Source: Gemmatimonas sp.
GTDB lineage: Bacteria > Gemmatimonadota > Gemmatimonadetes > Gemmatimonadales > Gemmatimonadaceae
Assembly (NCBI GenBank): GCA_965279375.1
Contig: OZ257156.1
Span: 2,016,001 to 2,080,000 of the forward strand
Direction: 5' to 3'
Length of the DNA stretch: 64,000 bases
Shown: one piece after another, positions 15,598 to 41,886 of the stretch
How the letters are laid out: each line of letters begins with the position of its first letter
Position numbering within the stretch: position 1 is the first letter of the stretch
The notes under the pieces: generated by a model
The model's database searches: none
Seen by the model: the letters and a program-made list of their open reading frames with translations, nothing else
What the model was told of the DNA's origin: nothing
Translations under genes and position numbers: made by a program

Positions 15598-16935
15598 TCA
15601 GCGCAGAATGAGCTCAATGCGACGGTTGCGCAGGCGCCCTTCCACAGTGCTGCTGCTCGTGGTGGGCCGGCGCCCACCCTCACCACGCACGGACAACCGC
15701 TCGATTGAAATGCCGCGCGCGACGATGTAGTCGCGCGCGGCCTCGGCCCGCCGTACCGAGAGTCCGATGTTGGCATTGAGGTCGCCGCGATCATCGGTAT
15801 GGCCGACAAGCTCGGCCGTCACTCGGCTGTACGTTCGCAGATAGTCGACAACCAGATTCAGCTCGGAACGACCTGCCGCCGTGAGTCGAGTGCTGACGCC
15901 TTCGAAAGTCACCGCACTTGCGCGATAGGTCTCGAGCCGCGGGCAGCCGCGTGGAAGCGCGCCACCAGCGACCGTCGGGCATTTGTCGAGCGCGTCTTCA
16001 ATGCCGTCGTTGTCCGTATCGGGACAGCCATCGAGGGCACGCGTGCCCGCCGTCGCCGGGCAGCCGTCCGTGGCATCGGGTACGCCGTCCTGATCACGAT
16101 CCAGAACCGGCGGTGGCGTGCACCCGCGGTGCGCTGCGACACCCGCCGTGTTGGGACACGCGTCGTCGCCGTCGAGAATCCCGTCACGATCTGCATCGGC
16201 AATCGGACACCCTTGCTGCGCCGAGAGTCCAACTTGTGTCGGGCACTTGTCGACTTGGTCCAGCAGTCCGTCACCGTCGGTATCTGCGTATACGCGCCGA
16301 CCGAACAATTTCACTTTCACGCCCGCCTGCACACCCTGCAATCGAATGCGTGAAGCGGATGCAGCGGTGTTGGTACGGTTCTGATCTGTGAAACCGAGAT
16401 TGTATCTGCCGTATACGCTGACCCGCGAATGCGGCATGATCTCAACGCCGCCGGTCGCCGAGAGATTCAATGAGGAGACGGAGTCCGTGGTCCAGTAGTT
16501 GGGCGTATCACCGACGCGCAACGCGTAGTCGAACTGACCTCCCAGCGACACCGCCGCGAACCGGCCGACATGCACCTTGAGTAGCAGCGGAGCGGAAATG
16601 AACCCCAGCGTCGCGCTGTCGAGGAGCACACGTGTGCGTGCGCGTCCGGTTGCGCTCTGTGCGCGCGACGGCGTCGACAAATATTGCAGCTGCGGTTCGA
16701 GCGAAAGTCCGAAACCGAGGGGCAGATTGAACCACGCGCCGGCCGACCACCCGGGTTCCTGCTTATAGCGCTCGGCGCCATTGGAACTCAACGTCAGCAG
16801 CGTTGCGCCCCCGACGAGGCCAACCGAGGGCGTGTAGTGATCGCGAGTTGGAACCTGCGCGTGCGTGACTGACGCTGCGAGGAGCAACTGCACCGCGCCG
16901 ACGGAGAGGCACCGTGGCAACCTGGAACATGACAT
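15598..16935 (-). CDS. OmpA-family protein: beta-barrel, DxDxDG..D..D.CP Ca-binding repeats, OmpA_C domain
   Basis: Repeated D.D.DG..D..D.CP units; VGHTD, LSVRRA, NRRIE; start uncertain. Confidence 0.85.
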   Translation of the reverse strand: MSCSRLPRCLSVGAVQLLLAASVTHAQVPTRDHYTPSVGLVGGATLLTLSSNGAERYKQEPGWSAGAWFNLPLGFGLSLEPQLQYLSTPSRAQSATGRARTRVLLDSATLGFISAPLLLKVHVGRFAAVSLGGQFDYALRVGDTPNYWTTDSVSSLNLSATGGVEIMPHSRVSVYGRYNLGFTDQNRTNTAASASRIRLQGVQAGVKVKLFGRRVYADTDGDGLLDQVDKCPTQVGLSAQQGCPIADADRDGILDGDDACPNTAGVAAHRGCTPPPVLDRDQDGVPDATDGCPATAGTRALDGCPDTDNDGIEDALDKCPTVAGGALPRGCPRLETYRASAVTFEGVSTRLTAAGRSELNLVVDYLRTYSRVTAELVGHTDDRGDLNANIGLSVRRAEAARDYIVARGISIERLSVRGEGGRRPTTSSSTVEGRLRNRRIELILR

Positions 16936-17069
16936 GAGGCCTGCGGGGCTCGGGTCCGACGACGTCACGAGGAAGGGGCCGCCGTGACCAACCGGAAGGA
17001 TGTAGGCGTATCGAACAGCCCGACAAGACGAGTCCGCGTAACAAATACCCGCATGATCTCGTGAACGAA

Positions 17070-17822
17070 TCAGCGCGATGCAGCCTGCAGGTCGGCCGCG
17101 ACGATGATGCGAACTCGTAGATCACCAACAGAAGGATCGACGAGAAAGCCAACGCGTCGCGGGGGTGACGCCGCGAGCGGCTCGAGCGTGCCAAAGGGCT
17201 CGTAGCGAAAGCAATCAGTCGCGCGATCGCCGCATCCGACGTCGTTGAAGAAGTTGTGCGGCGCACCATCCCAATCACCACTCGGCACGGCGAGTCCTGA
17301 GCGCGGAGAACTCACCGTGATCACACCGCCTGTGACCGAAACGCCGCCGGCGGTCGAGAGCACCGCGACTTCGATCGGAAAAGCCTGGACGCCGACGACA
17401 TTGCTCGGTGGAGCCGGAAAGGTGGGCGTGATCAGACGTAGCCCAGCAAGTCGGTTGATGATGGTCAGATCGAAAGTAACGAGCACCTTGCCCGGTACCG
17501 TCGCGCCGAGCACGCCCGCTGCGTAGTTGCTGGCGCGCATCTCCACTGCGTCACCGCCGAGGAGCGACGGTTGGACGCGCGCGCCAAACGTGACTGCACT
17601 GCTCGACGCAGGCAGTCCGGCGAGCAGGACCGTCGGCGCAGAGACGGCAACCCTTCGACGGAGCGTGGACACGTCGACGATGAATGCCGACTCGCGATAG
17701 GGCGACGGTGTCGAGGTGCCCTGTGCCAGCGATGAAACCGGCGCAGTCGTGGCCTCGGAACTGCACGCACACGCGATCACCAATACGAATAGACAACAGA
17801 CGCGAATCAACGACGGGAACAT
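17070..17822 (-). CDS. Lipoprotein consisting only of the island head domain (paralog 1)
   Basis: Lipobox-like IACAC; HNFFNDVGC.....DCFRYEPF shared with 17964 and 33320. Confidence 0.8.
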   Translation of the reverse strand: MFPSLIRVCCLFVLVIACACSSEATTAPVSSLAQGTSTPSPYRESAFIVDVSTLRRRVAVSAPTVLLAGLPASSSAVTFGARVQPSLLGGDAVEMRASNYAAGVLGATVPGKVLVTFDLTIINRLAGLRLITPTFPAPPSNVVGVQAFPIEVAVLSTAGGVSVTGGVITVSSPRSGLAVPSGDWDGAPHNFFNDVGCGDRATDCFRYEPFGTLEPLAASPPRRVGFLVDPSVGDLRVRIIVAADLQAASR

Positions 17823-17963
17823 GAACGACTGTCTCGCTGCGATGAGAAACGTCGGTGCGCGCGCTGCGCACCTGCTCACCACCAACGACACACGTCTGCT
17901 TACGTCACGTCCTTCCCGTCGTCGAGGGCAACATTGTTACGTGCGCTCGAGCAAGGGCATTCT

Positions 17964-19778
17964 CTACGGCACGACAAGGCTCGAGAGGTTCAGCGTGACA
18001 CGCGAAGTCACATCGATGTCCTGCGTGCCCGCTCCCACACGGGTGAGCGTCACCTGCGGAGTGACGGTGCCACTCGCGCCGGCGGTCACGTTGAAGGTCA
18101 GTCGAATCAGCGCGACGACGCCAGTGCTGGATGCGCCCGCGGTGCTGGCGACGATCACGCGCGACGTTGCACCGCTGCCGCCAGCGTTGCTCTCAACCAC
18201 GTCGCCGATATCGAAGGTGCCGGGGGTCAACAACTGTCGCGACGTCCAGTCGAGCAACGTGCCATCGTAGGCCATCACCAACGATAGACCAGTGAGCGCG
18301 TCTGCCGCCGAGCCGTCGATATCACTGTTTCCGGGTGCAGCGCCCATGTCGATTGACAGTGTCAACGTCACCTGTCGGCCCGTGGGGCCGGTCGGCGTCA
18401 TGCTGCCCCATGTGGCCGTGAGTGGATACGTGATCGTCGGCGCAGCGCAGGTGACGACGAGGCTGCGCGTCAGTCCACTCGCATCGAGCGCGCTGTACGA
18501 CACGTTCGACGCGCTGCAGCCCGCGGGCAGATTCGCCAACGCGATGATGCCGCTGTCTGCCGGGCGGAACGGCACCTGTGACACTTGCCACGCACCGGTC
18601 GCATCGGTCGTGACGGCGGGGATCGGCGTGCCGCCTGTGGGAGTGACGACCACCTGTACACCGGCGAGCGGCGCGCCAAGCGTGGTCCTCACCGTGCCCT
18701 GGATCGACGCCGTGGGAACGGTGCAACTGGCCACGAAATCCTGAACGACCGTCGCGCCGGCTGGTACGTTCACACTAACCGTCGGTTGCAGCGACACGCA
18801 GCCGGATGGCAGTGCCTGCAGCGAGACGGTGCGGGCGCTGCCACTCGGAACGTTCGCGAGGCTGTACGCGCCGGTGGCTGACGTGGTGGCGGTGCCGCCA
18901 CCAGTCACAGTCACCACCGCACCGGCAAGAGGCCCGATGTTCGATGTGACCGTGCCGCGCACGACTCCGGGCAAAGGAGGCGCTGCAGCCACCAGGTCGG
19001 CGCCGACGATCACTTTCACGATGAAGTTGCCGACCGTGGGATCGATCAGAAAGCCGACCTGCTGGGGCGCAGAGCTGGCAAGCGGATCGATCGTGCCGAA
19101 CGGCTCATATCGGAAACAGTCCGTCGCGGTCGCCGGGCAACCCGTGTCATTGAAGAAATTGTGCAGTGCGCCATCCCATTCGTTGTCGTGCACGACCGAA
19201 CCGAAACGCGGCGACGACACCTGCAACTGGTTGCCACTCGAGCCGACACCGCCGGGACTCGTGAGCACGCCGATCTCGATGGGAAATGCCAGTACACCGA
19301 CCACGCCCGAAGGCGGCGTCGGGAAGGTGGGTGTCGAGAGGCGGAAGCTCGCCAGCCGATTGATGACCTGGATGTCGAACAGCACCTGAATCTTTCCCGG
19401 CGCGACGGCGCCGAGCACTCCGCTGCGAAAGTTCGTGACGACGAGGTCGATCGCGTCGGCGCCGAGCAACGATGGCTGTACACTCAGCGGCGACACGGTG
19501 GTCATATCCGCAACACGCGATGACAGACTCGCGCTTGGCGCAGACACTGTCACTTGCTGGCGCGTCGCATTGACGGACAGTGTGAACGATGCGTTGCGAT
19601 ACGCCGCGGGAAGTGCCGGAGTCGCCGGCAGTTCGGGGGCGATCGACGTCGGCTTCTCCGCCGCGCAGGCCTCTAGGACGCACGCAGCCACCAGCAGCCG
19701 ACCGACGACCGCGATTGCGCGCGCGCTCGACCAGCGACGGCGCGCTGCGACAGCCGAATCGGAAAGCGTGTTGCGCAT
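17964..19778 (-). CDS. Lipoprotein: head domain, 2 Cys-paired Ig-like repeats, C-terminal cohesin-like domain (paralog 2)
   Basis: Lipobox LEAC; collinear similarity to 33320..35116 along its whole length. Confidence 0.85.
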   Translation of the reverse strand: MRNTLSDSAVAARRRWSSARAIAVVGRLLVAACVLEACAAEKPTSIAPELPATPALPAAYRNASFTLSVNATRQQVTVSAPSASLSSRVADMTTVSPLSVQPSLLGADAIDLVVTNFRSGVLGAVAPGKIQVLFDIQVINRLASFRLSTPTFPTPPSGVVGVLAFPIEIGVLTSPGGVGSSGNQLQVSSPRFGSVVHDNEWDGALHNFFNDTGCPATATDCFRYEPFGTIDPLASSAPQQVGFLIDPTVGNFIVKVIVGADLVAAAPPLPGVVRGTVTSNIGPLAGAVVTVTGGGTATTSATGAYSLANVPSGSARTVSLQALPSGCVSLQPTVSVNVPAGATVVQDFVASCTVPTASIQGTVRTTLGAPLAGVQVVVTPTGGTPIPAVTTDATGAWQVSQVPFRPADSGIIALANLPAGCSASNVSYSALDASGLTRSLVVTCAAPTITYPLTATWGSMTPTGPTGRQVTLTLSIDMGAAPGNSDIDGSAADALTGLSLVMAYDGTLLDWTSRQLLTPGTFDIGDVVESNAGGSGATSRVIVASTAGASSTGVVALIRLTFNVTAGASGTVTPQVTLTRVGAGTQDIDVTSRVTLNLSSLVVP

Positions 19779-19814
19779 GAGGGCAGCGAACTGTAGGCGT
19801 TGGCTCTCGGACGA

Positions 19815-20543
19815 CTACGGCTTCACGGTTGCGCGAACGATGTAATCCATCTCCGTGAACCGTTCGAGATACACATTCCCTTCCTTCAGGATTCGCTCCT
19901 CGCCGAGCCCCTGACCGTATACGTCATAGAGGCGTGGCAGTACCTCGACGCCCTTGACGACCCGGCCAACCACCGTGAGTCCGCTCTGCTCGAGCCCCTC
20001 GTTGTCGCGCACGCTGAAGAACAGGTGGGTGGTCCGGGTGTTTGGCCCGCTCGACGCGAACGCGAGCGACCCGGCGGTGTGCGGACGCGTCGACGGATCA
20101 TCCTTGATGGACATCGTATCCCACACCGCGCTCACGCGCGGATCGCCGTTGAAGCCGAATTGCGCGATGAAGTCCCGCTGCACCTTGTAGAAGCGCATCG
20201 CGTCGAAGAAGCCGTGCTTCGCGAGGTAGTACAACCGGTCCACGCCGCGCGGTGCCCACGCGCGCACGACGGCAACCGTCATGTCGCCCTGGCTGGTTTC
20301 GAACACGATGTCGAACGAGTCCGGCGCCGGAGTGCGCAACGCAATGGTGTCCGGCACGAGCACCGCAGCGGACGGTGTCAACGGCGGAAGCGCAGGACGA
20401 ACGGCCATGCGCATGCGCTTCAAGCTGCTGTCGAAGGCCAGACGCTCGCTGCTCGGTTGCTCACTCGGTTTCGCCGCATCGTGATTGCAGGCGCTCAGAA
20501 GCGTAGTGACGAACAGTATGGCAGCGAAGCGATGCGAAAACAT
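19815..20543 (-). CDS. Cyclophilin-type peptidyl-prolyl isomerase, lipoprotein
   Basis: FETSQG, WAPRGVDR, FIAQFG, GPNTRTT.LF, GRVVKG; lipobox LSAC. Confidence 0.85.
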   Translation of the reverse strand: MFSHRFAAILFVTTLLSACNHDAAKPSEQPSSERLAFDSSLKRMRMAVRPALPPLTPSAAVLVPDTIALRTPAPDSFDIVFETSQGDMTVAVVRAWAPRGVDRLYYLAKHGFFDAMRFYKVQRDFIAQFGFNGDPRVSAVWDTMSIKDDPSTRPHTAGSLAFASSGPNTRTTHLFFSVRDNEGLEQSGLTVVGRVVKGVEVLPRLYDVYGQGLGEERILKEGNVYLERFTEMDYIVRATVKP

Positions 20544-20723
20544 GGCGTGCGGAAAGAATGAGGACGGTGATACGGGAGAACAATGTGCGCGTCGCCGAAC
20601 GTGTTGTCGCGGGCCGTGACCACATCTTGACCGCATCGATGCGCGTGATTCGATGCCGCGCCGACCAACCGATGCCATGCTTGGCTCTGGGCACTTCCGC
20701 GAACCGTCCGTCGGCACCCATCC

Positions 20724-23501
20724 ATGCCTCTGCGTCTTCCGCACCGCCTCCGCTCGGTCCGCGTGCTGCTCGCGTGCCTCACCGTTCCGCTGCTCGCCGC
20801 CAGCACCTCGCGTGCAGGTTCGCGAAGCACCGCGTCGAGCACCGCAGCTACTTCCACGCCGGTGAGACGTCACACGCTCGGCACGCGCGGAGTCGTCACG
20901 CACTTGCGCGAGCGCGTCGTGCTGGATCGACGGATCATCCACGAATTGGTTGGCCCCGTGGAGGTGGAGGCGGGTGGATCGCTGGTGATCGAAGCCGGCA
21001 CCCGCATTGAAGCGCGCCCCGGCGCGTCAATCGATGTGCAGCGCGACGGTGCGATCATCGCCAACGGCACGCTACTCGAACCGATCGTGCTGACGTGCGG
21101 AAGCGTGCCTCGATATGCGGGATGCTGGAACGGGTTGCGTCTGCGTGGCTACGCTCGCATCAACTACGGTACGCCGGACAGTCCTGCCGACCCGCAAGGC
21201 GGTGGCAGTGGCTGTTTGCAGGCAGTCGAGAACGCAACCGCGTTCGGTGGTTGCGCGAATGCCGACTCGAGTGGCGTGCTGCGATTCGTGCGCATCGAGT
21301 ACGCGGCGTCGGGACTTCGGTTGCTTGGCGTCGGCGCCGCAACGCGTGTCGAACACATTCAAGTCAATCGCAGCCTCGGCGACGGCCTCTCGATCGTCGG
21401 AGGCGCTGTCGACATTCGACGCGTTCTGCTCACCGCGAACGCTGGCTACGGCCTGGCGTGGCGTTCGGGGTGGCAAGGGCGCGGTCAGTATGTCGTCGTG
21501 CAACAGGACGCGACGGCGCTCGCGGGTGGAATCAGCGGCAGCAATGCGTCCGCTACTGGCGGCGGCTTCAGCAACACGCCTCGTTCCGCGCCCACTCTCT
21601 TCAATGTGAGCGTCATCGCGCCGGCCGCAGGGTCACTCAGCGGTGAGCGCCCGGCGCTCCATCTGCGGCAAGGAACGGGTGGCATCATCCGCAACCTGCT
21701 CGTGCACAGTTCCGCGCTCGTGCTGGACATCGACGACAATTCGACCTGCGATGCGTTCGACAATCGCAACCGAGTCTCGATCGGCAACCTGGTGCTTGCG
21801 GCCAACGTGCTCCTTGGCAGCCCCGATGTTGATCCCGTGCTGTGCGATCCGTACACATCGCCTAACCTCGAAACGCAGTTGATGAGCGACCCGGCAACCG
21901 CAGCTGTGGTCGTCACCGATCCCGTCGCGCTGTCGACGTTGTTGCGCAACCCGACGAACCTGATCGTTCCCGACTTCCGTCCGGCCAATGGCTCTGCCCC
22001 GTCGACCGTGCCGCTCTCCACGCCGCCGAACGACGGGTTCTTCGATCCGTCCGCTGCATTCGCCGGCGCGGTGGATCCCGCGGCGGCCGCCCGCAACAAC
22101 ATCCCGTGGTACTCGGGCTGGTCCACCGCCGCGCCGACGCCGCCTCCGCCAGGCACCGTGTCCGGCGTTGTGTCGTCGGCAGGTCAGGGGCCCATCGCCA
22201 ATGTGGTGGTGGCGTCGCTCTTCGGTGTTCGCGACACCACGGACGCGAACGGTGCCTTCGCCATCGTACTGCCTGCGGGCCAGCACCAGCTGTCGCTGAC
22301 TGATCTGCCTATCGGCTGCAGCGCAGCGTCGCAGACGGTCAACGCCGTATCCGGTAGCGTGGTCACCGCAAACTTCACCGCCGGATGCACGATCGTTGCC
22401 GATGTTGCGTTGGGTGCGTTGCACGGCTGTCTCATGGCCAGCGATCAGCGGTTGCAGTGCTGGGGGCAGAACGACTACGGCATGGTCGGAGACGGGACGT
22501 CGGTGACGCCACGCCTGCTGCCGGTGTCGGCTGCCGGTGGGCTTCCGTATGACGCCCTCACACTCGGCGCCGGTTTGACGCACACCTGCGCGACGCGCGT
22601 CAGCACCACCTTCTGTTGGGGGGCGAACGTGTTCGGGGTGTTGGGACTCGGCACGACAGGCTTCTTCGCCGCGTCACCCGTCTCCGTCGGAAACGCATCC
22701 ACGCCGACCTTTTCGCGTGCCGCTGCCGGTGGCTACCACGCCTGCGGTCTCACGCCCAGCGGCGAGGCGTGGTGCTGGGGGTGGAACGCGGAAGGGCAGG
22801 TGGGCGCGAACTCCACCGCGTTCAGTATCGCGACACCAACGGCAGTGTCGGTCGGTGCGACGCGCTTTACATCGCTCGCGCTCGGCGAGTCGCACTCGTG
22901 CGGTCTCACATCGGTGGGCGCTGTCTGGTGCTGGGGCGGCAATGGTCGTGGTGAAGCCGGTCGAGACACCGCCGGCCCGGATCTGAAGAGTCTCGTGCCT
23001 GTTCTCATGTCGACGTCATTGACGTTCACGTCGATCGATGCAGGCACGTTGCACACTTGCGCGTTGACCGCGGACGGAACGGCGTACTGCTGGGGATCAC
23101 GCGAGTTCGGCCAGCTTGGTGACGGGAGCACGTCAGGAATTGCAATTGCGCCGGTGCCAGTGAGCACCACCGAGAAGTTCACGCAGATCGCGGCCGGTGG
23201 ATTCACGACGTGCGGTGTCACGACGGCGCAACGCGTGCTCTGTTGGGGAGCCGGCGCGTCCGGCGCACTCGGCAACGGCACCAACAGCGTGACGCAGACG
23301 ACACCGGTCGGCACCACTCCATTGCTCAGTGCGCGACGCGTCGCCGTCAGTCTCGGTACCGCCGACGCGACAACGGTTTGCGCGATTACAACCACCGACG
23401 CGTTGTTCTGCTGGGGCGCAGGTGGCGCTGGTCAGTTGGGCAACGGTACGACGACGTCGTCGAGCGTTCCGGTGCAGGTGCGAGTGCGCGGCCCGTTCTG
23501 A
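20724..23501 (+). CDS. Secreted protein: beta-helix domain, Ig-like repeat, RCC1 repeats
   Basis: L.IEAGT, DSSGVLRFVRIEYA, NNIPWYSGW shared with 35199; repeated H.C......CWG.N..GQ.G. Confidence 0.85.
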   Translation: MPLRLPHRLRSVRVLLACLTVPLLAASTSRAGSRSTASSTAATSTPVRRHTLGTRGVVTHLRERVVLDRRIIHELVGPVEVEAGGSLVIEAGTRIEARPGASIDVQRDGAIIANGTLLEPIVLTCGSVPRYAGCWNGLRLRGYARINYGTPDSPADPQGGGSGCLQAVENATAFGGCANADSSGVLRFVRIEYAASGLRLLGVGAATRVEHIQVNRSLGDGLSIVGGAVDIRRVLLTANAGYGLAWRSGWQGRGQYVVVQQDATALAGGISGSNASATGGGFSNTPRSAPTLFNVSVIAPAAGSLSGERPALHLRQGTGGIIRNLLVHSSALVLDIDDNSTCDAFDNRNRVSIGNLVLAANVLLGSPDVDPVLCDPYTSPNLETQLMSDPATAAVVVTDPVALSTLLRNPTNLIVPDFRPANGSAPSTVPLSTPPNDGFFDPSAAFAGAVDPAAAARNNIPWYSGWSTAAPTPPPPGTVSGVVSSAGQGPIANVVVASLFGVRDTTDANGAFAIVLPAGQHQLSLTDLPIGCSAASQTVNAVSGSVVTANFTAGCTIVADVALGALHGCLMASDQRLQCWGQNDYGMVGDGTSVTPRLLPVSAAGGLPYDALTLGAGLTHTCATRVSTTFCWGANVFGVLGLGTTGFFAASPVSVGNASTPTFSRAAAGGYHACGLTPSGEAWCWGWNAEGQVGANSTAFSIATPTAVSVGATRFTSLALGESHSCGLTSVGAVWCWGGNGRGEAGRDTAGPDLKSLVPVLMSTSLTFTSIDAGTLHTCALTADGTAYCWGSREFGQLGDGSTSGIAIAPVPVSTTEKFTQIAAGGFTTCGVTTAQRVLCWGAGASGALGNGTNSVTQTTPVGTTPLLSARRVAVSLGTADATTVCAITTTDALFCWGAGGAGQLGNGTTTSSSVPVQVRVRGPF

Positions 23502-23778
23502 TCGCGACACGCAGCGTTTGATACGTGCGAGAGGCATCGGCATCGACAGCATCGAACGTGATACAGATGCGATGACGAAAACGCGTGCAGCCAACACGCA
23601 ACGTCAACGGCGGGTCTCGAAGCCGCAACAATCGGCGAGAAACGGATGGATCGCATGGCAGACTGCTCATCGCGCGTCCACCATTGCCTTCCCGCCGCCA
23701 AACCAACCACCGTGAACACTGCGTGTGGTGACTGCCCGGGTCGGCAGGTCTCACACGCTCGCTTTGGAGTACTTCGTC

Positions 23779-26700: not shown

Positions 26701-26799
26701 TGGAGTTGGGATTTCGGTGGATTGGGCACTGGGAGCTACATCGCCATCGGCGTCAATGCAGCGGGCGATGGCCTCATGACCCGCGTGGTGACGCCATGA
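23779..26799 (+). CDS. Large lipoprotein with two N-terminal bacterial Ig-like (Big_2-like) domains
   Basis: GGAG before GTG 23779; lipobox LQAC; WQSSDP..VSVS..G, NPAVATIS..G.VTAVAVG, DQAGN. Confidence 0.8.
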   Translation: MSSFLRHGICVALCVGSMVMLQACDDKVVAPVKPLIRSLEIFPNPATVRVNEDLVMVAKVLADSGADVSLSWQSSDPRRVSVSPTGIIRGVSVGPAVLLVQSDADPNFSSAIPVTVTPQYTGISAITASPLVVTLIPGQTQPISATVTADPGVNRAVRYSIDNPAVATISTSGVVTAVAVGSARVTVRSVVDTSAQTSVPITVRAPTGARVSIQSVTSRGTNLPVDLLDVHGQVDVLVNLEPGEAQLSRLDLVVTNAGRDTIVASQSFTAAQSARVFATGTNGAVSAGVVVQSFRTDAFDPRVGTTYFKNGAITIKAIAVDLAPSGTAQQSASSALGATLNNRDGFLVQVQALPTTGIATATDPAGRRWLQAGRGLAVTTTPVIFSNRLLGARTISFPGNSPVASITVNGTTVSADTLLLPASYTSPNSGDGYVNGELPSVQASDVQGNAIPLVPALVNGSGGGIMNVQPSFTTGLRLEGLRVDNAPPPAATLVLTSTANNSNNWVNGSYVFAQGLQNFVQDLGVGLRGPSANLTPQSAEVTFLALGGDLTDTTEVTTGANLPASSSNLTYELIARYADRLGNTRFISLSAVAGVHPGTRFGVDLLPPTLRYARDSVSGRTLITTNADSIFASNTAGTGHRVFAVDAIDDLSGLPAGRVAVTLRRFGQPSPANTFNGTYTCVIGTGANCAPVLRNYSAVLPDDYRQVSVLVDDSTGVEGYYLFSATAQDQAGNVSAPRTKRALIDAGTGASAPSMTGLGLSGVLTGNQPAAFLALASDNVELRSGGLLIRYPNLPLTSQMLAYGLPTGGGTTLGVAFDTLLTSPITGNHPAFTIPKFIRSMEVVDTLDRPPTASGVTLKPNAANAWVTDFAFGGAPSSLPANITIVPGAVQSATTSPVFAGNIGTIRELQTWRRAGISGLRFDAIGPSGQVAPPFTRVVIARLDSTALAVSPEAWRVVGEIAVPAGVDNGLRRIWSWDFGGLGTGSYIAIGVNAAGDGLMTRVVTP

Positions 26800-32600: not shown

Positions 32601-32712
32601 TCCCACGCTCACGGTCAGACAAATGCTCGCGGACACTTTTGCTGCACCGCAGAAGAACGTGACCTCGAGCGTGGTGGTGCAGCCCATTCCGACATTGACG
32701 ATTCCACCCTGA
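29650..32712 (+). CDS. Modular lipoprotein: FN3, Ig-like, cohesin-like, PKD, 3 Cys-paired repeats, C-terminal cohesin-like
   Basis: Lipobox-like GQSC; YGYRVRAV (FN3); SDPDG.I.SY.WNFGDG (PKD); TTG start inferred. Confidence 0.82.
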   Translation: MSDKRIVRRRTWMAVLLGLTLGQSCKSSSEPGDLSPPTELQATALGVNAIAVTWKPAAGVTSYTLERRTDFVGPFEVIKDAIRGDGAALVSYLDTSVEPEHYYGYRVRAVAALGVRSDVSTVAGARTAPVPGVRIRTSTSFASPASADADGFLVSVRGPRDTSSFAVAINGERLIAPLPKGTYTVVLRGLAINCSPRTLGDTVKVVQVSDEGLNTIGNAEFNVSCRDPKKASIVTTVRATGDTVDADGVVITVSGIIREAGTPANERVYFQSRTLQGATPAARFDDLRLGDYEITISDVEAPCVLDGERLRTLQPKALAVDTVAFALTCLKPVAPVDTAGRPLVLRQVWSAASARPGDKVSLLTSLDLRARPALLAAGVTGTIRFDNTVVRFDSARTTRAFQVTANNLAQPGILAFAAAQTDDPALPGNIDILRSWYTVIGAVGATVTTNTTITDVISSTQTKLTSQTRAAEGTLTVSNTTTSPNQAPTAVITGPTAGAVGASLSFSGSQSSDPDGSIASYAWNFGDGQSGTGATVTKSYSTAGTYTVRLTVTDAQGATGTKDQQVVITASAPTTGSVAGTVTSSLGGGLGGVTITVTGGLTATTAANGSYSVANVALGSRTVSVSGVPSNCTAPAAQTVTVAAGASSTANFTVTCTTTGGGATTGTLNGRVTRVSDGSGIGFARITITPAGGSALTPVNTAVDGNYAASGVPIGSGSNAGSGSITVDNLPNGCTIPAAQPYSGLTANGTVTVSVAVTCAVATTGTLTGRITRSTGGDAAGVSVTVTPTGVSALPAVTTNSTGTYTVTNVPAGGGALALASLPTGCTPPASLTYSGLTAGGSLTRDLVLNCVAGPHTYPVTATWGAVTTGGPTGRQVTLTIAVDMGSAPGRPDVAGNAADPMAAITLAVAYDSTKLAYQSRTLLSPNEFDLGIAGTVADTIPANAGQKITTVAVASSAGVVKTGSFQLVRVLMNIRTVGAGTVTPTLTVRQMLADTFAAPQKNVTSSVVVQPIPTLTIPP

Positions 32713-32767
32713 TGAATGACGACGCGGCGCGATGTTGCGTCGCACGTGGTGTCGTGACACAGAACCG

Positions 32768-32804
32768 ATCGTGGCGCGTTGCGAGTATCGCAGTGCGCCA
32801 CGAT
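32768..32804. terminator. Long hairpin after the 23779-32712 operon
   Basis: ATCGTGGCGCGTTGCGA-gta-TCGCAGTGCGCCACGAT. Confidence 0.55.
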
Positions 32805-32814
32805 TCGCGTTTGA

Positions 32815-32946
32815 TGTATCGACAGCTGTGTCGCGCTCTGCATCGGTCTCAGCGTCGACATTCAAAGTGAACGATGCATCGGCAATTGTATCGACGACTG
32901 CATCGCGAATTGTATCGAGCATTGTATCGACCGTTGCATCGACATC
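32815..32946. repeat. Degenerate 12-bp-period array, 11 in-phase units, core TGYATCG
   Basis: Core at 32815, 32839, 32875, 32887, 32899, 32911, 32923, 32935; degenerate units at 32827, 32851, 32863. Confidence 0.85.
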
Positions 32947-33103
32947 GCGATCGCATGCGCATGCAACATCGTGTTCGACCGTGCGCGTGCGAACCTGTAA
33001 CATCTGCAGAGGGCCGATCTTTGATACAGAAGAAAGGTTTGGTTTGTGACAGGGGTCTCCGATGATAGGGCCGTTGGTCCCCCCCTGGTCTTTCCGCACG
33101 AGC

Positions 33104-33263
33104 GCACGACAACGGCAAAGCTGACGAAAGTCAGCGACGCAAAACCACGAAGCTACCGCGCAAACACTTCTTGATTCTCGACAGCAATGCGTTGCGCATT
33201 GTGGTCGCAATCATCGCCCTCAGGGCAACACCGCTTTGCGCCATGCTGGTCGGGTCACCGAAC
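33104..33263 (+). ncRNA. c-di-GMP-I (GEMM) riboswitch with enlarged P3
   Basis: GGCAAA, GCTGAC-GAAA-GTCAGC, GACGCAAAACC...AGCTAC...ATGCTGGTCGGGTCACCGAA; lies in the 5' UTR of 33320. Confidence 0.85.
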
Positions 33264-33319
33264 GAACGAGCTGGAACGGACCTCTTGCTAACACCAATCG
33301 CGTAAGAGGTTTTCTCCAC

Positions 33320-35116
33320 ATGCAAAGTTTTGCGAACATTGGTCGCCGCGTTTCGGCGTTGACCGCCCTCCTCGCACTCGGCGCGTGCGCCGAGCAGAAT
33401 GCTCCAGCTCCTGTCGCGCCTGTGCTTCCGGGCGTCTCGGCGATTCCGACGCAGTATCGCGGCGCCGCGTTCATCATGGACGTGAGCTCGACGCGCAAGA
33501 CGGTGCGCATCACCGCGCCGTCCTCGAGCATCAACTCGCGCCTGAATCCGAACGTGCTCTCCGGCGACGCGAACTACTCGCTGCTCGGCGGTGACGCCAT
33601 CGAACTGGTCACCAGCAACTTCCAGGCTGGTGCACTTGGTGCCGTGGCGCCGAACAAGATCCTGATCACGTTCGACATGCAGATCCTCAACAAGCTCGCG
33701 GGTCTGCGCCTCGACACGCCGACGTTCCCGACTCCGCCGTCTGGCGTCACGGGTGTGCAGGCGTTCCCGTTTGAAATCAGCGTCACCAGCTCTGCCGGCA
33801 GCGTCGGCTCGAGCGGCAATGAAGTCGTCGTGACCACCCCGCGTGGTGGTGTGGTGGAGCCCAGCAGCGATTGGGGCAACCTGCCCCTCGGCGATGGCAA
33901 CAACCACAACTTCTTCAACGATGTTGGTTGCACGGCCACGTCGAACGATTGCTTCCGCTACGAGCCGTTCGCCGCTGTTGGACCGTCGGGCACGTCCGCC
34001 GCGCAGCGCGTCGGCTTCCTGATCGATCCGACCGTTGGTGACTTCCGCGCGAAGATCATCGTTGCGGCCGATCTTGCCCCGGCCGTTGCTGCGGCCCCGG
34101 GCACGGTTGACGGCACGGTGACGTCCAACATCGGCCCGGTCTCCGGCGCCACGATCTCGGTGACGGGTGGCTTCACGGGCACGTCCAGCGCGACGGGCAC
34201 GTACTCCATCGGCAGCGTCACGTCGGGCCCGAACAAGACGGTCTCGATCTCGAACCTCCCGGCTGGTTGCACGGCGAACCAGGCCTCGTTCAACAACCTG
34301 ACCGTTCCGGCGGCTGGTACGCTCACGCAGAACTTCGTCCTCACGTGCGCTGTCCCGACGGGCGGCATCACGGGCACGATCACGAAGCAGCAGGACGGTT
34401 CCGCGCTGGTCGGTGTCAGCGTCGTTGTGACGCCGAACGCTGGCGCCGCGCTCGCCGCTGTGACGACGGCCGCCAATGGTGGCTACAACCGCTCGGCCGT
34501 GCCGACGATCCCGAACAACGGCACGATCACGCTGTCGAACCTGCCCGCTGGTTGCGTCAACGCTGGCCCGTACACGTACACCGGCCTCACCACGGGTGGC
34601 CTGGTTCGCGACATCGTCGTGAGCTGCCCGCCGGCCCCGGTGACCTACGCGCTGACGGGCACGTGGACCACGACCGGCTCGCTGCCAGGCACCCGCACGG
34701 CTCGCCTGACGTTCGCCGTCAACATGGGCTCGGCCCCGGGTAACCCGACGATCAACGGCACCGCCGCTGACGAACTCGCCGGCATCACGATCGGCGCGAA
34801 CTACAACGGCACGCAGCTCACGTTCGCCAACCGCAGCGGCCTGCTCGATCCGCCGTTCGACCTCGGCATCGCCGGCACGGTCGGTGGTGGCACGGCCAAC
34901 GCGACGACGACGATTGCCGTCACGTCCGGCAGCGGCGGCACGCAGGCGGGCGCGTTCACGCTCGTCTCGCTGAACTTCACCATCCCGGCTGGCGTCGCGA
35001 GCGGCACGTCGATCACGCCGACCATCACCGTCAACCAGGCTCTGGCCGGTGTCGGTGGCGCGAGCAACGTGACGTCGAGCTTCACGGTCAGCGTCCCGGC
35101 CCTGATCGTCCCGTAA
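33320..35116 (+). CDS. Probable major surface lipoprotein: head domain, 2 Cys-paired Ig-like repeats, cohesin-like C-terminus (paralog 3)
   Basis: AAGAGG SD; lipobox LGAC; strongly biased codons. Confidence 0.88.
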   Translation: MQSFANIGRRVSALTALLALGACAEQNAPAPVAPVLPGVSAIPTQYRGAAFIMDVSSTRKTVRITAPSSSINSRLNPNVLSGDANYSLLGGDAIELVTSNFQAGALGAVAPNKILITFDMQILNKLAGLRLDTPTFPTPPSGVTGVQAFPFEISVTSSAGSVGSSGNEVVVTTPRGGVVEPSSDWGNLPLGDGNNHNFFNDVGCTATSNDCFRYEPFAAVGPSGTSAAQRVGFLIDPTVGDFRAKIIVAADLAPAVAAAPGTVDGTVTSNIGPVSGATISVTGGFTGTSSATGTYSIGSVTSGPNKTVSISNLPAGCTANQASFNNLTVPAAGTLTQNFVLTCAVPTGGITGTITKQQDGSALVGVSVVVTPNAGAALAAVTTAANGGYNRSAVPTIPNNGTITLSNLPAGCVNAGPYTYTGLTTGGLVRDIVVSCPPAPVTYALTGTWTTTGSLPGTRTARLTFAVNMGSAPGNPTINGTAADELAGITIGANYNGTQLTFANRSGLLDPPFDLGIAGTVGGGTANATTTIAVTSGSGGTQAGAFTLVSLNFTIPAGVASGTSITPTITVNQALAGVGGASNVTSSFTVSVPALIVP

Positions 35117-35132
35117 CGACTCTAGATCCGAC

Positions 35133-35165
35133 GCCTGGGCTGGCGCGACATGCGCCAGCCCAGGC
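35133..35165 (+). other. Intercistronic 14-bp perfect stem-loop without U tail
   Basis: GCCTGGGCTGGCGC-gacat-GCGCCAGCCCAGGC. Confidence 0.75.
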
Positions 35166-35198
35166 TACGGTCCCCCTCATATTTCGGAGACACACCTC

Positions 35199-37496
35199 AT
35201 GAAGGGCTTTACTTTCCGGGGCGCCACGATCGGTCTGGCGTCGCTCGGACTTTTGGCTGCCTGCGACCGGAGCGAGATGCCCAGCGCGCCTGCGGCGCCG
35301 CTGGCCGCCCGCTCCAACCTGGCGCTCGAAGTCTCGAGCCTCACCGCCCGTACTGGTGACACGGTCGCCGTCGCGCTTGCGAACGGCACCGGCCTCGAAG
35401 TCGGTGGCGTGCAGGGCACGCTCCGCTTCGACCCGTCGCAGCTGCGCTACCTCGGCCAGCTTCGCGATGGCTCGAGCGAGCAGATCATGATGATCAACGC
35501 CAAGGACGCCGCCCGCGGCGAACTGCAGCTCGTCGTCGCCGACGGCAAGGGCATCGATCACAGCCAGCCCGTGCTCTTCGCCGTGGTCAACAACGGCTAT
35601 TCCGCCGGTCTCGACTTCGACGTGATCGACGCGACGCTCAACAGCTCCCCGGTTGCGCGCGTCAAGATGTCGGTGGAAGACGGTGTGCAGGTCAACGGTG
35701 CGCTGGCCCACTCGGGCACGCCGTCGACGATGTCGCTGCAGGATTGGAAGCAGGCGCTGGGTGGTGACGTCTCGCGCGATCCGGGCGAAGTCCGCAACGG
35801 ACTCGTGTTCGGCGATACCGATTTCAGCGGCGCGCTCGACCTCGTCGACGCGCTGTACGTGATCAACGTGCTCGTCGGCAACGCCGAAATCATCGTCGGC
35901 ACCGACGGCTCGGGCCCGAGCGGCGATCGTGACGGCGTGGTGGCCGCCAACGTGCAGCCGTTCAACCTGCCGGGTCTCGGCGAAGTTGGCGACGCGACTC
36001 CCCCGGGCCTCGAGCCCGATGGCACGCGTCAGATCGCACTCGATGACGCGCTCGCGATCATCAACGAGTTCGTGGGTAACAACCAGTCCGTGGTCGGCGA
36101 AATCATCCCGGGCCGTCCGGCTGCGCCGGCGACCAACCGCGTGCTCGTCGGTGACCCGGCGGTCGGAACGACCAACATCACGACGAACACCACGTGGACG
36201 AAGAACAACATCTACGAGCTGATCAACGAAGTCGTGGTGACCGGTGGCGCGACGCTGACCATCGAGGCCGGCACGCTCATCGAAGGCCGTCAGGGCCAGG
36301 TCGTTGGTGGTGTCTCTCAGGACGGCTCGGCGCTGTACATCGCGCGTGACGGCAAGATCAACGCGGTGGGCACCCCGTTCGAGCCGATCGTCTTCACCTG
36401 CAAGGGTGCCAAGTCGAAGGGCTGCTGGGGCGGCATCTCCATCCTCGGCAACGCCTCGAACAACCGCTCCGGCACTGCGACGAGCCCGGTCATCGCGGGC
36501 CGCGCGCCGACGGGTGGCTGCCTCGAGACGGCGTCGGAAGGCCGCACCGCGAAGCTCTACGGTGGCTGCAACGACGACGATGACAGCGGCACCCTGCGCT
36601 ATGCGCGCATCGAGTACGCCGGCTTCCGCTTCACGGCCACGAATGAGCTGAACGGCCTGGCGCTGTACGGCGTGGGCCGCGGCACGACGCTCGACCACAT
36701 TCAGGTGCACGCCGGCCTGGACGACGGCATCGAGTTCTTCGGTGGCACGGTGAACGCCAAGTTCCTCTATCTCACGGCCAACTCGGACGACTCGTTCGAC
36801 TTCACCGAGTCGTTCACGGGCAACGTGCAGTTCGTCGTCGTCCAGCAGGACTCGCTCGATTCGGACAAGGGTCTCGAGATGGACAACAACAACGTGAGCG
36901 TTGCACTGCACAGCACGACGCCGCGCTCGGCGCCGAAGCTGTACAACTTCACGGTCGTTGGTAAGCAGTTCGTGACCAGCACGTCGGGCGCCGCCGGCAA
37001 CAACTCCGTGGGCGGTCTGCACGCGCGCGTTGGCGCCCTGCCGAAGATGTTCAACTTCATCGTCCAGAACTTCCCGTTTGCGCTCGACCTGGACGACGCG
37101 GCCACCGGCGACAACTGCGGCACGGCCACGGGCCTGCAGCTGACGAACTCGATCTTCGTGCAGAACACGCGTCTGGACGCGTCCGACACCGGCGATCCGG
37201 CCACGTGCGGCGCTGACGAAGCGGCGTTCATCAGCAACCCGGCCTACAACAACACGACGACGGGTTCGAGCCCGCTCATCAGCCCGCTCAACGTGCTGGT
37301 GCCGGACTTCCGTCCGGCGTTCGGCTCGGCTACGGGCGGTGTCGCCCCGCCGGCGAGCCCGGTTGGCGCTCCGGCTGGCTTCTACGACGTCACCGCCACG
37401 TACATCGGCGCCGTGAAGCCTGCAGAAGCGACGAAGAACAACATCCCGTGGTACGCTGGCTGGACCCGCGGCTGGGCCACCGCTTCCACTCCGTGA
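35199..37496 (+). CDS. Lipoprotein: cohesin-like, dockerin-like and beta-helix domains
   Basis: Lipobox LAAC; GDTVAV..GVQGTLRFDPSQLRY; GDTDFSGALDLVDAL; DDSGTLRYARIEYAG, ELNGL, DDGIEFFGG. Confidence 0.88.
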   Translation: MKGFTFRGATIGLASLGLLAACDRSEMPSAPAAPLAARSNLALEVSSLTARTGDTVAVALANGTGLEVGGVQGTLRFDPSQLRYLGQLRDGSSEQIMMINAKDAARGELQLVVADGKGIDHSQPVLFAVVNNGYSAGLDFDVIDATLNSSPVARVKMSVEDGVQVNGALAHSGTPSTMSLQDWKQALGGDVSRDPGEVRNGLVFGDTDFSGALDLVDALYVINVLVGNAEIIVGTDGSGPSGDRDGVVAANVQPFNLPGLGEVGDATPPGLEPDGTRQIALDDALAIINEFVGNNQSVVGEIIPGRPAAPATNRVLVGDPAVGTTNITTNTTWTKNNIYELINEVVVTGGATLTIEAGTLIEGRQGQVVGGVSQDGSALYIARDGKINAVGTPFEPIVFTCKGAKSKGCWGGISILGNASNNRSGTATSPVIAGRAPTGGCLETASEGRTAKLYGGCNDDDDSGTLRYARIEYAGFRFTATNELNGLALYGVGRGTTLDHIQVHAGLDDGIEFFGGTVNAKFLYLTANSDDSFDFTESFTGNVQFVVVQQDSLDSDKGLEMDNNNVSVALHSTTPRSAPKLYNFTVVGKQFVTSTSGAAGNNSVGGLHARVGALPKMFNFIVQNFPFALDLDDAATGDNCGTATGLQLTNSIFVQNTRLDASDTGDPATCGADEAAFISNPAYNNTTTGSSPLISPLNVLVPDFRPAFGSATGGVAPPASPVGAPAGFYDVTATYIGAVKPAEATKNNIPWYAGWTRGWATASTP

Positions 37497-37510
37497 CCTG
37501 ATTCATACAC

Positions 37511-37598
37511 AGTCTACGGAGACGGCGAGTCGTCGTCTCCGTAGACTATGTAGATCGACGCGTGTTGCGGGGGGGCGCCATCTGGCGCTTCCCCGTTT
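37511..37598 (+). terminator. Two tandem hairpins after 35199..37496
   Basis: AGTCTACGGAGACGGCG-agt-CGTCGTCTCCGTAGACT, then CGGGGGGGCGCCA-tc-TGGCGCTTCCCCG-TTT. Confidence 0.7.
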
Positions 37599-37631
37599 CG
37601 CGTCTCCCGACGACTGGTCTCCAGATCCCTC

Positions 37632-38963
37632 ATGTCCTCGTCGCTCCGCCGCCTGTTGGCGCGACTCGCGCTCCCCGCGCTCACCGTTGTCACCGTCGCC
37701 AGCTGCGTTACCGACGCTGCCACCGGTCCGACGCGTCAGCCGCCGTACCTCGCGATTCTCATCAACGTCGATGCGCCGAAGGAGCTGGCCACCGGCGGTC
37801 CGTACACGTTTCGCGTTCGTGAGCTCTCTGGCACGATCAAGTTCGACACGACCTTCCGCGCGTCCGTCCGCGACACGGTGATCATTCCCGTCACGGCGGC
37901 CACGTACCGCGTCGACATTTCCGACGTGCCGGCCACCTGCGGCGTGCGTGACGGCAACGCACAAGCGATCGTGGTGCCGCCCAACACGAACACATCACTC
38001 ATTCGCTTCTCGCTGACGTGTTCTGCGTCGCTCGTGGTGGCCGCCGCCGTCGACGGCTTCGGGATCGATTCCGAGTTCGTGGTGACCGTACAGGACAGCG
38101 CTGGCAAGGAGATTGGTGCCATTCTGCCGGCCAATGACACGATTCGACTCGAAGGAATCGCAGCGGGTCGCTACGATGTGACGCTGCGCCACGTGGCCGA
38201 TAACTGCGTCGTCATCAGCGATGGCGGACTCGTAGTGCCGGTCACGATCCGTCCGTCCGGTGGGGCCTTTGTGCCCTTCCGCGTGATCTGCTCAGAGGTA
38301 GCCAAGCGTCCGCGCATCACGCTGCTCGCCGGCACGTACGCGGACGGGTCGATCGGGTATGTGATTCGAGCGGCAGATCCGGACCGTGACGTGGAACGCA
38401 CCTTCGTGGACGTCACCGATTGCAATCAACGCTCGGTGCTCCCCGGCGGCGGACGACGACGTGGCGCATTCGGTGGCTGGCCGAACGTGACCGGTCGCGA
38501 CACGGCGGTGATCATGGGGGCGTACGATCTCAACGTCTCCGACTCACTCTTCACCAATCGCTGCCTCGGCGCGTGGGTGGCCGACAGCCGTGGCAACACC
38601 TCTGCCTTCGTCGAGATTCCGCTCAGGCGCAGCGATGTCGCGCGTCGACCCGTCGTGAGCGCCTTCAACGGGCGGCTGAACGGCACCAAAAGCATCTTCG
38701 TCGATCTGACCGTGCGCGATCCGGACAACGACTTCGTGGGCCTCTTCACCGTCTATCTCGTGCGCGACGGTGTGCTGAGTGCGTCCGACGGCGTGCCAGA
38801 CCGCGTCGTCTTTCAGCCGGCGGGTGTGCTAGGCAACACCGTGCCTGAATTCCTCGTCAACATCGGCTTTGGCAATTGGAACGACTACTTGGGCGTCGTG
38901 CTCTATGCCTTTGACCGTGCGGGCAACTTCACCCGCATGCAGGACCTGACGCTCGAGTTCTGA
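37632..38963 (+). CDS. Lipoprotein with Cys-paired Ig-like repeats
   Basis: Lipobox VASC; DVPATC..FSLTC, VADNC..FRVIC; DPD.D and D.AGN motifs. Confidence 0.75.
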   Translation: MSSSLRRLLARLALPALTVVTVASCVTDAATGPTRQPPYLAILINVDAPKELATGGPYTFRVRELSGTIKFDTTFRASVRDTVIIPVTAATYRVDISDVPATCGVRDGNAQAIVVPPNTNTSLIRFSLTCSASLVVAAAVDGFGIDSEFVVTVQDSAGKEIGAILPANDTIRLEGIAAGRYDVTLRHVADNCVVISDGGLVVPVTIRPSGGAFVPFRVICSEVAKRPRITLLAGTYADGSIGYVIRAADPDRDVERTFVDVTDCNQRSVLPGGGRRRGAFGGWPNVTGRDTAVIMGAYDLNVSDSLFTNRCLGAWVADSRGNTSAFVEIPLRRSDVARRPVVSAFNGRLNGTKSIFVDLTVRDPDNDFVGLFTVYLVRDGVLSASDGVPDRVVFQPAGVLGNTVPEFLVNIGFGNWNDYLGVVLYAFDRAGNFTRMQDLTLEF

Positions 38964-38978
38964 GTCTGCAGGCGATGG

Positions 38979-40748
38979 TTAGCGAAGTCGGGCGAGATAC
39001 GCGCGCGCGCCGGCAAACGCGACCGGTCCGCCGCTCTCGCTGCGCATGCGGAACGTAAAGGCGCTCGAGCCGGCCGGTCGCGACAACAGGAAGTAGTTGC
39101 CCGAACCTGAGGCGGACTGTGTGGTGACTTCCGTCGGCAAGGTGGTCATGCGCAGCGGGAACACGCCGCCGTTCAGACCGGACATCGCGTCGCGCATCGC
39201 CCACGACGTGAACTGATAACGCGAGGCGAGCCCCGGGCTCGTGGTATCGCCGACCGCCGAGATCAGAAATCCGGGGAGGATCTCGGAAAAGCTCACGCGT
39301 GCTCTGGCCTCGAGGTTTGCCACATCCACCTGAGGACCCGAGACGAGCGCTCGCGTGAACGTGCTCGGTGTGGTACCTGCGTACTGATCGATCGAGTAGC
39401 GCAGCAGTGCCCACGCCGCGCCGCGCGGTGCGAGGTCGGAGATCGCCTTGCGGCTGATGGGTGAAGCCAGATCGGGGCGATTCATCCATGCGCGGAGCCG
39501 AATCAGGTTCTGCTTGAAGAACGATTCGTAATCGTCGAGATCGATGAGGACGTCGTTGAACGTCAACCGCCTCGTGACGGCGAACCCGCGCACATTCCGG
39601 CCCACGAGTTCTTCTGCAAGATGCGACAGCCCCTCGTTCATCCAGTCCGTCTCGAGCGCCACGCCAAGTCGTTGCCGCACGCCTTGATTGATCAGGTGCT
39701 GGAGCTCATGCGCGACCGTCGCACGCATGGCGCGGAACACCGTGGAAACCGTGAATCGGTTGCCGTTCACCAGGCCGTTGGGATCTGGGGTGAGCAGGTA
39801 CATGATTTCCTGCTCATTGCTCGCCGGGCAGGCGAAGCCCTGCGTGGAGACGGCGCGAGGCAGCAGGTCGGGTGACCAGAAGTACCCGCCCACGTAGCCC
39901 AGAGACCCGGCCGGCGTCAGGCGATTGATCGCCGGCGTGAAGAGCAGCACCACGCGACCATCACCGTTGATGTCGGTGGGTTCGCCAAACCACTGCACAT
40001 CCGTCGGGTGCACCACGGCGTCATACTCGCTCGCGATCGCGGAGAAATCCGCTGCGGTGAATCCATTCGGCGGCGCTGCAACATCCTGCACGATCAGGGC
40101 GCGCGTGCTGATGGCACGCACGACGGCCCGTACGGTGCTGAAGTTGTTGCACATGTTCGAAGACGAGGCGTCGCCGACGCGATAGGACAGCGTATCGCCG
40201 ACCGCGACGGCGGCGACTGCGGCCGCGGACACATTGCGTCTGCCCGCGGCTGCGAGCGCGCCGACATCGTGTCCGGCCAACAGTCGCCGCGTGGCTTCGT
40301 GGCGGCGCGCTTCTTCACGCGCGGCGAGGCCAAGCGCGTCCGTGGACACCGCAGTGTTGCTCGCATCGAGGTCATTCTGCGTGCGCTGCAAGCGCGACGT
40401 CAGCGCGCCCGCTCCCTGCTCGCCTGTCACGCGATATGTCTGCAGCTCATCCTGCGTCGACGCGGCGTTCGCCGCGATCAGCACGTACTCGGACGCGTCA
40501 GACGAGCCGGCGACGACGACGCAGCCAAGTGCGGCGCCCCCTTCCACCATCTGCACCTGTCCGCGGGTGAGCGTGCGCGGCGTGGCGCACGACGCCGGAA
40601 CGACCGGGGGCGCTGTCTGGTCGCCACACGCCGTCAGCATCGCGCCGGCTACTGCGACCACGCCTCGCAAGATCCGGTCATGAGCGAGCCGAAACGGTCG
40701 ACGTATCGGGCCGCCGGGTGCCGTGTATTGCGTAGCAGTGTCACTCAT
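38979..40748 (-). CDS. Zinc metalloprotease lipoprotein (gluzincin; M30/hyicolysin-like)
   Basis: Lipobox LTAC; DINGDGRV, VGGYF, AHELQHLIN, WMNEGLS. Confidence 0.82.
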   Translation of the reverse strand: MSDTATQYTAPGGPIRRPFRLAHDRILRGVVAVAGAMLTACGDQTAPPVVPASCATPRTLTRGQVQMVEGGAALGCVVVAGSSDASEYVLIAANAASTQDELQTYRVTGEQGAGALTSRLQRTQNDLDASNTAVSTDALGLAAREEARRHEATRRLLAGHDVGALAAAGRRNVSAAAVAAVAVGDTLSYRVGDASSSNMCNNFSTVRAVVRAISTRALIVQDVAAPPNGFTAADFSAIASEYDAVVHPTDVQWFGEPTDINGDGRVVLLFTPAINRLTPAGSLGYVGGYFWSPDLLPRAVSTQGFACPASNEQEIMYLLTPDPNGLVNGNRFTVSTVFRAMRATVAHELQHLINQGVRQRLGVALETDWMNEGLSHLAEELVGRNVRGFAVTRRLTFNDVLIDLDDYESFFKQNLIRLRAWMNRPDLASPISRKAISDLAPRGAAWALLRYSIDQYAGTTPSTFTRALVSGPQVDVANLEARARVSFSEILPGFLISAVGDTTSPGLASRYQFTSWAMRDAMSGLNGGVFPLRMTTLPTEVTTQSASGSGNYFLLSRPAGSSAFTFRMRSESGGPVAFAGARAYLARLR

Positions 40749-41400: not shown

Positions 41401-41438
41401 GGTTCGGCTCCGGTTACGGCTGTGCGCGGACCCGTTCT

Positions 41439-41876: not shown

Positions 41877-41886
41877 GCGCTCGCGC

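Follow-up and report, generated by a model that had tools for sequence, protein, structure and literature searches.

A gene cluster of a Gemmatimonas sp. likely encodes a cellulosome-style docking complex around a TonB-dependent transporter

Few modular protein connectors are as strong as cohesin-dockerin pairs, whose natural roles have been tested mostly in Gram-positive anaerobes. The best known are the type I cellulosomes of Clostridium/Acetivibrio, in which a multi-cohesin scaffoldin is combined with dockerin-bearing glycoside hydrolases. For the Nemodlikiaceae, a non-cellulosomal 'planctosome' has been put forward as a hypothesis (PMC6461901). A different kind of surface system pairs a TonB-dependent transporter with a pectin-lyase-like lipoprotein, as in ElpS/CC0171 of Caulobacter, BT4056/BT4055 and Fjoh_0546/0545. 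Here we describe a locus of twelve genes (g1-g12, Table 1) at positions 15598-40748 of a 64,000-nucleotide stretch of Gemmatimonas sp. contig OZ257156.1 (hereafter, the window), in which these two known kinds are brought together. The combination is real, conserved and apparently undescribed; the operon was not described in the literature searched, most subscription journals and supplements lying outside the search.

The product of the cluster is likely a docking complex in the style of a cellulosome, borne by a cell with two membranes. As in type I cellulosomes, cohesin and dockerin folds are combined with a duplicated dockerin with matching positions 10/11 and a genome-specific recognition code. 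Unlike in cellulosomes, the host has two membranes, each of several lipoproteins carries one or two cohesins with no scaffoldin, and the dockerin sits behind a cohesin in the same protein as a putative transporter lid and has a long insertion in its loop 2. At most two cohesins were found per protein, none of them on a scaffoldin serving dockerin-bearing glycoside hydrolases; no glycoside hydrolase family was matched in Pfam or NCBIfam, in agreement with the original prediction made from the sequence of the window. The closest structural matches of the g10 cohesin (2w1n, 2vo8, 2xdh) are the non-cellulosomal cohesins of Clostridium perfringens hydrolases and Archaeoglobus fulgidus, whose hosts, in contrast, are monoderm or archaeal and have no TonB-dependent transporter. 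As in SusC/SusD systems, the transporter is flanked by several co-transcribed lipoproteins, but no SusD match was found here, g7 scored 37.6 against a cut-off of 368 for TIGR04056 and, to our knowledge, docking modules are no part of SusCD. The locus resembles the ElpS-type pairs in its transporter and pectin-lyase-like lipoprotein, a paralogous pair lying in the pho/pst locus of the genome. However, the pair described here is probably duplicated out of the pho locus, its lipoprotein has gained a cohesin and a dockerin, and two cohesin genes separate the lipoprotein gene from the transporter gene. Finally, the planctosome is likewise a non-cellulosomal cohesin-dockerin complex proposed on the outer membrane, with peptidase cargo and one protein bearing both modules (PMC6461901). 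It differs in belonging to another phylum and in its lamin-tail anchor domain; neither a transporter nor a lipoprotein operon appears in the available part of its description, and it is also unproven (PMC6461901).

Based on the results below, we suggest the following organization, to which we assign a probability of about 0.55. The core genes g7-g11 would form a surface capture complex with a lid on g7 and a dockerin plugged into stalked cohesins. The lipoproteins would be exported to the outer face, probably via the type II secretion system of the genome, as for ElpS. There, the g10 beta-helix would cap the transporter g7 as a lid, while the predicted g10 dockerin would plug into the predicted cohesins borne on immunoglobulin-like (Ig) stalks of the lipid-anchored g8, g9 and g3. 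Binding would be calcium-dependent, in trans and in either orientation, and g10's own cohesin may act as a fixed support for the dockerin. The head domains of the lipoproteins and nearby peptidases would gather and cut a polymeric substrate, most likely protein or peptides, beside the transporter; capture is somewhat favored as the main function. Because all partners are lipid-anchored, the outcome would be a cross-linked mesh on the membrane rather than a free scaffoldin. A cyclic dinucleotide likely controls the translation of g9-g11 in this genus. Gene order, lipoboxes, the riboswitch match and co-variation were read directly from the sequences, while the folds are predictions. A fuller formulation is put forward tentatively, at slightly less than even odds. 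In it, the dockerin fused to the lid would connect the transporter, through a plug code particular to each genome, to a mesh of stalked lipoproteins whose head domain is undescribed; other loci could supply proteases that plug in, and in one genus cyclic di-GMP (c-di-GMP) or cyclic GMP-AMP (cGAMP) would switch assembly.

The core was delimited by comparison with 21 other loci (19 genomes and two metagenome contigs), picked for holding the head or the cohesin-dockerin module. The order transporter-g8-g9-g10-g11 was complete in 14 of them, consistent but cut by contig ends in five, and absent from the fetched stretch in two. Therefore, from gene counts over these loci, the conserved system is g7-g11, often with a peptidase, and g1-g6 are local additions. 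The expected synteny in relatives thus holds for a five-gene core across two families. The OmpA protein and the cyclophilin, which the original prediction took for an anchor and for the system's own foldase, were each found in 1/21 other loci and are dropped as parts of the system, several of the loci being short contigs. Among the same 21 loci, g5 was present in two, g6 in four and a g12-like peptidase in nine; the HExxH motif was retained in all nine g12 homologues. In searches of 400 phylum genomes, with 6-7 candidates scored per genome, the head was found in 22, all within two families of one order, and a strong cohesin-dockerin match (E < 1e-30) in 20, 18 of which also had the head. Within the genus, a full-length g10 orthologue was present in 2/36 genomes. 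Head genes have been duplicated repeatedly, and in nine genomes g11 is followed by a second gene of the cohesin-dockerin-beta-helix type.

The module repertoire first read from the sequence (three heads, five cohesin-like domains, one dockerin-like domain, Ig repeats in five proteins and two beta-helices) was borne out. The heads of g2, g3 and g9 are 50-53% identical; cohesin-like domains occur in g3, g8 (two), g9 and g10; g10 has the sole dockerin-like domain of the locus; [LV]PxxC...C Ig repeats occur in g3, g5, g8, g9 and g11; and the beta-helices of g5 and g10 are 36% identical. Predicted structures and structural matches support both docking folds, namely a beta-sandwich for the cohesin and two loop-helix repeats with the dockerin fold. 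The g10 cohesin did not reach the PF00963 cut-off (15.7 bits vs 24.1), and weak matches to this family were found in 4 of 13 family members (best E 3e-4). The calcium loop of dockerin repeat 1 has D/N at position 1 and D at position 12 in 25/25 sequences, and that of repeat 2 retains N/D and D but has a long insertion. According to structure searches, the Ig stalk domains resemble CnaB and pilin domains. For the head, a profile search of PDB sequences gave nothing with E < 0.1, hhalign comparison with the cohesins gave 0.2%, and Atlas gave weak CBM3/CBM2 leads alone (0.78-0.83); whole-protein structure searches mainly picked up the Ig and cohesin domains. In one other protein (P0159), a head domain is fused to a region matching PhoX (E 2.5e-8).

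The g10 beta-helix belongs to PF28492 (Beta_helix_4). Homologues of it on plasmids of Sphingomonas and Indioceanicola have a transporter and type II secretion genes as neighbors, and in Hymenobacter the neighbor is a transporter; these transporters also match g7. The same arrangement has been described for Caulobacter ElpS (PMC2996285). The nearest g7 paralogue in the genome (380 bits; the next, 109) has its own beta-helix lipoprotein and is flanked by a response regulator/kinase pair on one side and by Pst-type and ppx genes on the other. Fjoh_0545/0546 are likewise listed within a phoBR operon (PMC8115612), and Price et al. (bioRxiv 2023.03.17.533168) have suggested, from a prediction with few confident contacts, that the ElpS homologue BT4056 forms a lid on a transporter. 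From the gene context, with a pectin-lyase-like lipoprotein encoded near a related transporter, we infer that an ElpS/BT4056-type transporter-lid pair was duplicated to give g7 and g10; this likeness of receptor and beta-helix was missed in the first reading. By this analogy, a lid role of the g10 beta-helix is probable. A type II secretion cluster at C1:3032-3042 kb of the genome is the likely export route of the lipoproteins. An MshEN-family match on its ATPase was not accepted as a link to c-di-GMP, because no binding motif was seen. Secretin matches in 23/23 locus-bearing genomes were not used, being below cut-off, possibly from pilus secretins and without a control set. Two orphan head-domain genes (L046:8783-9988 and L045:9510-11147), one with a cohesin, flank the secretion cluster at about 5 kb and 13 kb.

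The c-di-GMP-I aptamer upstream of g9 exceeds the gathering threshold of RF01051 (35 bits), is the sole match to this family in the genome, and is found at the same place in two genomes of the same genus (G025 and G028). In the window and in G025, the positions that we take to be equivalent to G20 and C92 of Vc2 are G and C, while G028 has A at the G20 equivalent. A G-to-A change at G20 marks cGAMP-binding variants (PMC6140456), which suggests a ligand change towards cGAMP in the orthologous riboswitch of G028 (L005:6115-6272). One predicted fold pairs the P2 strand with the g9 start codon; together with the predicted hairpin over the ribosome-binding site, this suggests translational control of g9-g11. 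Since neither Rfam nor our own model found an aptamer in 14 distant stretches, c-di-GMP control, originally ascribed to the whole system, fits only this genus and g9-g11, and the riboswitch was rejected as a general feature.

In another explanation, docking proceeds in the same way, but its product is a surface layer for sessile growth, adhesive or protective, with the transporter acting chiefly as an anchor and uptake coming second. The riboswitch, which precedes g9-g11 in three genomes, would suit such a layer, as would the CnaB- and pilin-like stalks, the repeated duplication of head genes and a core without an enzyme. However, the riboswitch was not found in the distant stretches named above, the transporter and beta-helix derive from a nutrient-linked pair, and peptidases recur nearby or as cargo, so we regard this explanation as unlikely.

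Docking of the g10 dockerin in trans was addressed by co-variation. We presume that positions 10/11 are numbered as the dockerin recognition positions. At these positions, the two repeats of one dockerin agree at 37 of 50 sites, compared with 12.5 after shuffling, so that the recognition residues are symmetric. Such symmetry is what dual-orientation binding would lead one to expect (PMC12484212, section 3.1). The paralogous dockerins of one genome were compared in seven genomes, G281, G392 and G091 being left out as close kin of G165; they agree at 23/28 recognition sites (10.4 when permuted, p 0.0008). The paralogues' own cohesins show no same-genome excess, and their beta-helices little.

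On the side of the predicted receptors, the g8 middle cohesin and the g9 cohesin of one genome match at one column in 8/10 genomes (family-wise p 0.001). This column (g8 Ala421) aligns with the hot spot Leu83, and the runner-up (g8 Gly382, p 0.08) with the hot spot Asn37; the mapping goes through 4ums, with hot-spot numbers that we assume to correspond. Leu83 and Asn37 are named as dockerin-contact hot spots in PMC12484212. In addition, the size of the dockerin residues varies inversely with that of the g8 cohesin residues (rho -0.82, n 10, post hoc). Another locus of G165 has the cohesin-dockerin cassette at the head of a subtilase, with the code VV/VL, compared with VL/VL in the operon; G281 shows a partial match.

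Several points weigh against the proposed complex. The same-genome excess extends to the rest of the dockerin (0.452 vs 0.398, p 0.0002), and because of this, gene conversion may contribute. The Asn37-like column alone is not significant, the HMMER alignment has a gap of one residue at the Leu83-like column, size complementarity fails for the g9 cohesin (rho -0.36), and G091, omitted as frameshifted, would contradict it. All co-variation was drawn from 7-10 related genomes. Furthermore, the second calcium loop of the dockerin is non-canonical, no core gene has a catalytic domain, the published lid prediction for BT4056 had few confident contacts, and the likeness to ElpS was drawn here from gene context. 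Lastly, the two-domain cohesin-dockerin model, with a predicted template modeling score (pTM) of 0.82, could mean binding in cis.

This last point belongs to a further explanation, in which the g10 dockerin is filled by its own cohesin, in cis or in head-to-tail g10 chains, and the g8 and g9 cohesins are plain structural domains without a multi-gene scaffold. In every intact family member seen, the cohesin does adjoin the dockerin. Against it, the g10-type cohesins do not track the dockerin code of their genome, and the g8 and g9 cohesins share a residue at the predicted contact column, which makes self-occupation quite improbable. The co-variation and cassette evidence favors one shared partner class outside g10, with kinship and gene conversion as possible confounders, and we have fair confidence that the dockerin docks in trans. 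The cohesin-dockerin assembly of the original prediction is consistent with the sequence co-variation, although its gene-level parts OmpA and cyclophilin were dropped. That the g8, g9 and g3 cohesins mainly recruit dockerin cargo encoded elsewhere, e.g., the beta-propeller protein at C1:3452-3454 kb, is very improbable: this BNR/Vps10 propeller has a canonical dockerin and extra cassette-bearing proteins occur in G165 and G281, but the propeller dockerin reads AG/AG at positions 10/11 rather than LV/LD and has a cohesin-like neighbor of its own, and the genome yielded no further g10-type dockerin.

If the proposed capture complex is correct, the coupling of cohesin-dockerin pairs to a TonB-dependent transporter on the outer membrane would be a new way of organizing surface uptake, in an abundant, little-studied phylum, and would offer a way into the study of the ElpS-type lipoproteins, which are widespread but unexplained. 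The plug codes found in nature (LF, VL, VF, VA, Lx, GL, ST) would supply ready binding predictions and possible orthogonal pairs for surface display.

Table 1. Features of the locus in window coordinates.
Feature	Position	Strand	Description	Support or occurrence
g1	15598..16968	-	Accessory; outer-membrane beta-barrel, TSP3 repeats, OmpA domain	Pfam; in 1/21 other loci
g2	17070..17822	-	Accessory; lipoprotein, head domain alone	
g3	17964..19778	-	Accessory g9 paralogue; lipoprotein: head, two Ig, cohesin 17967-18434	48% identity to g9
g4	19815..20543	-	Accessory; cyclophilin lipoprotein	PF00160, E 1e-16; in 1/21 other loci
g5	20724..23501	+	Accessory; beta-helix, Ig, RCC1 propeller; without cohesin or dockerin	In 2/21 other loci
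g6	23779..26799	+	Accessory; Big_2 lipoprotein; own start approximate; stop overlaps g7 start	In 4/21 other loci
g7	26796..29660	+	Core; TonB-dependent transporter	Pfam; TIGR01782, E 1e-68, below cut-off
g8	29638..32712	+	Core; lipoprotein: FN3, middle cohesin 30658-31089, PKD, three Ig, C-terminal cohesin 32218-32709	
Imperfect long hairpin	32712..32860	+	3' of g8; possible transcript boundary	z -4.3
c-di-GMP-I riboswitch aptamer	33104..33262	+	P2 expanded by 74 nucleotides	Rfam RF01051, 62.3 bits
Predicted hairpin	33272..33318	+	Over Shine-Dalgarno-like sequence of g9	z -2.0, weak; similar sequence in G028
g9	33320..35116	+	Core; lipoprotein: head 33446-34081, two CnaB/transthyretin-like Ig, cohesin 34640-35113	
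g10	35199..37496	+	Core; lipoprotein: cohesin 35319-35693, dockerin about 35796-36116, Beta_helix_4 domain 36156-37493	
g11	37632..38963	+	Core; lipoprotein of Ig-like repeats	No Pfam/NCBIfam match; in 17/21 other loci
g12	38979..40748	-	Frequent companion; HExxH metallopeptidase lipoprotein, lugdulysin-like	PDB 7bb8, E 5e-7

The twelve consecutive open reading frames (ORFs) and nine lipoproteins of the first reading were recovered from the ORF list of the window (Table 1). A lipobox regular expression matched in g2, g3, g4, g6, g9, g10, g11 and g12, and LGQSC of g8 was read by eye, with Cys at the same position in two g8 orthologues; the matches in g1 and g5 were rejected and read as ordinary signal peptides. 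Probable starts differ from the longest ORF in g2 (17822), g4 (20543), g7 (26796, an ATG overlapping the g6 stop) and g9 (33320). Because the strand changes at g4/g5 and g11/g12, the locus is not a single operon and comprises at least three transcription units. The domains named by Pfam were the transporter, OmpA, cyclophilin, RCC1, Big_2, PKD, FN3 and CarboxypepD-like domains, with no others; the first three, as well as the HExxH protease (g12, matching lugdulysin), had been recognized correctly at the outset. A promoter and terminator scan of the locus gave results at or below chance. Neither of the intergenic regions g5-g6 and g8-g9 belongs to a dispersed repeat, and the hairpin 3' of g8 is not repeated in the genome; beside it, between g8 and the riboswitch, short repeated motifs occur (32712-32960).

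Docking modules were also seen away from the operon. A second, separate docking-type locus (L044:7114-12474; G000 C1:3449-3454 kb) encodes a Big_2 protein, a small cohesin-like lipoprotein and the BNR/Vps10 propeller, which ends in its canonical C-terminal dockerin and is followed by a TonB-type transporter. The cohesin-dockerin cassette is fused to the subtilase in G165 (L053:8621-13105) and to repeats of no Pfam family in G281 (L054:2345-3799). In a third family (G048, L010:1-8065; G056, L009), proteins that begin with a cohesin occur in tandem; in L010 they also contain Big_2 and other beta-helices, and one of them has a dockerin match. In G091 (L021-L022), the operon is broken by many frameshifts, due to sequencing error or decay.

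To the right of g12 (window 40961-45687) lie a DUF2283 gene, a PIN-domain gene and an MmeI-like restriction-modification gene that is divided between two overlapping ORFs. The left border (window 12060-15574) is occupied by genes that, by eye, resemble those of phenylacetate catabolism, together with an enoyl-CoA hydratase gene.

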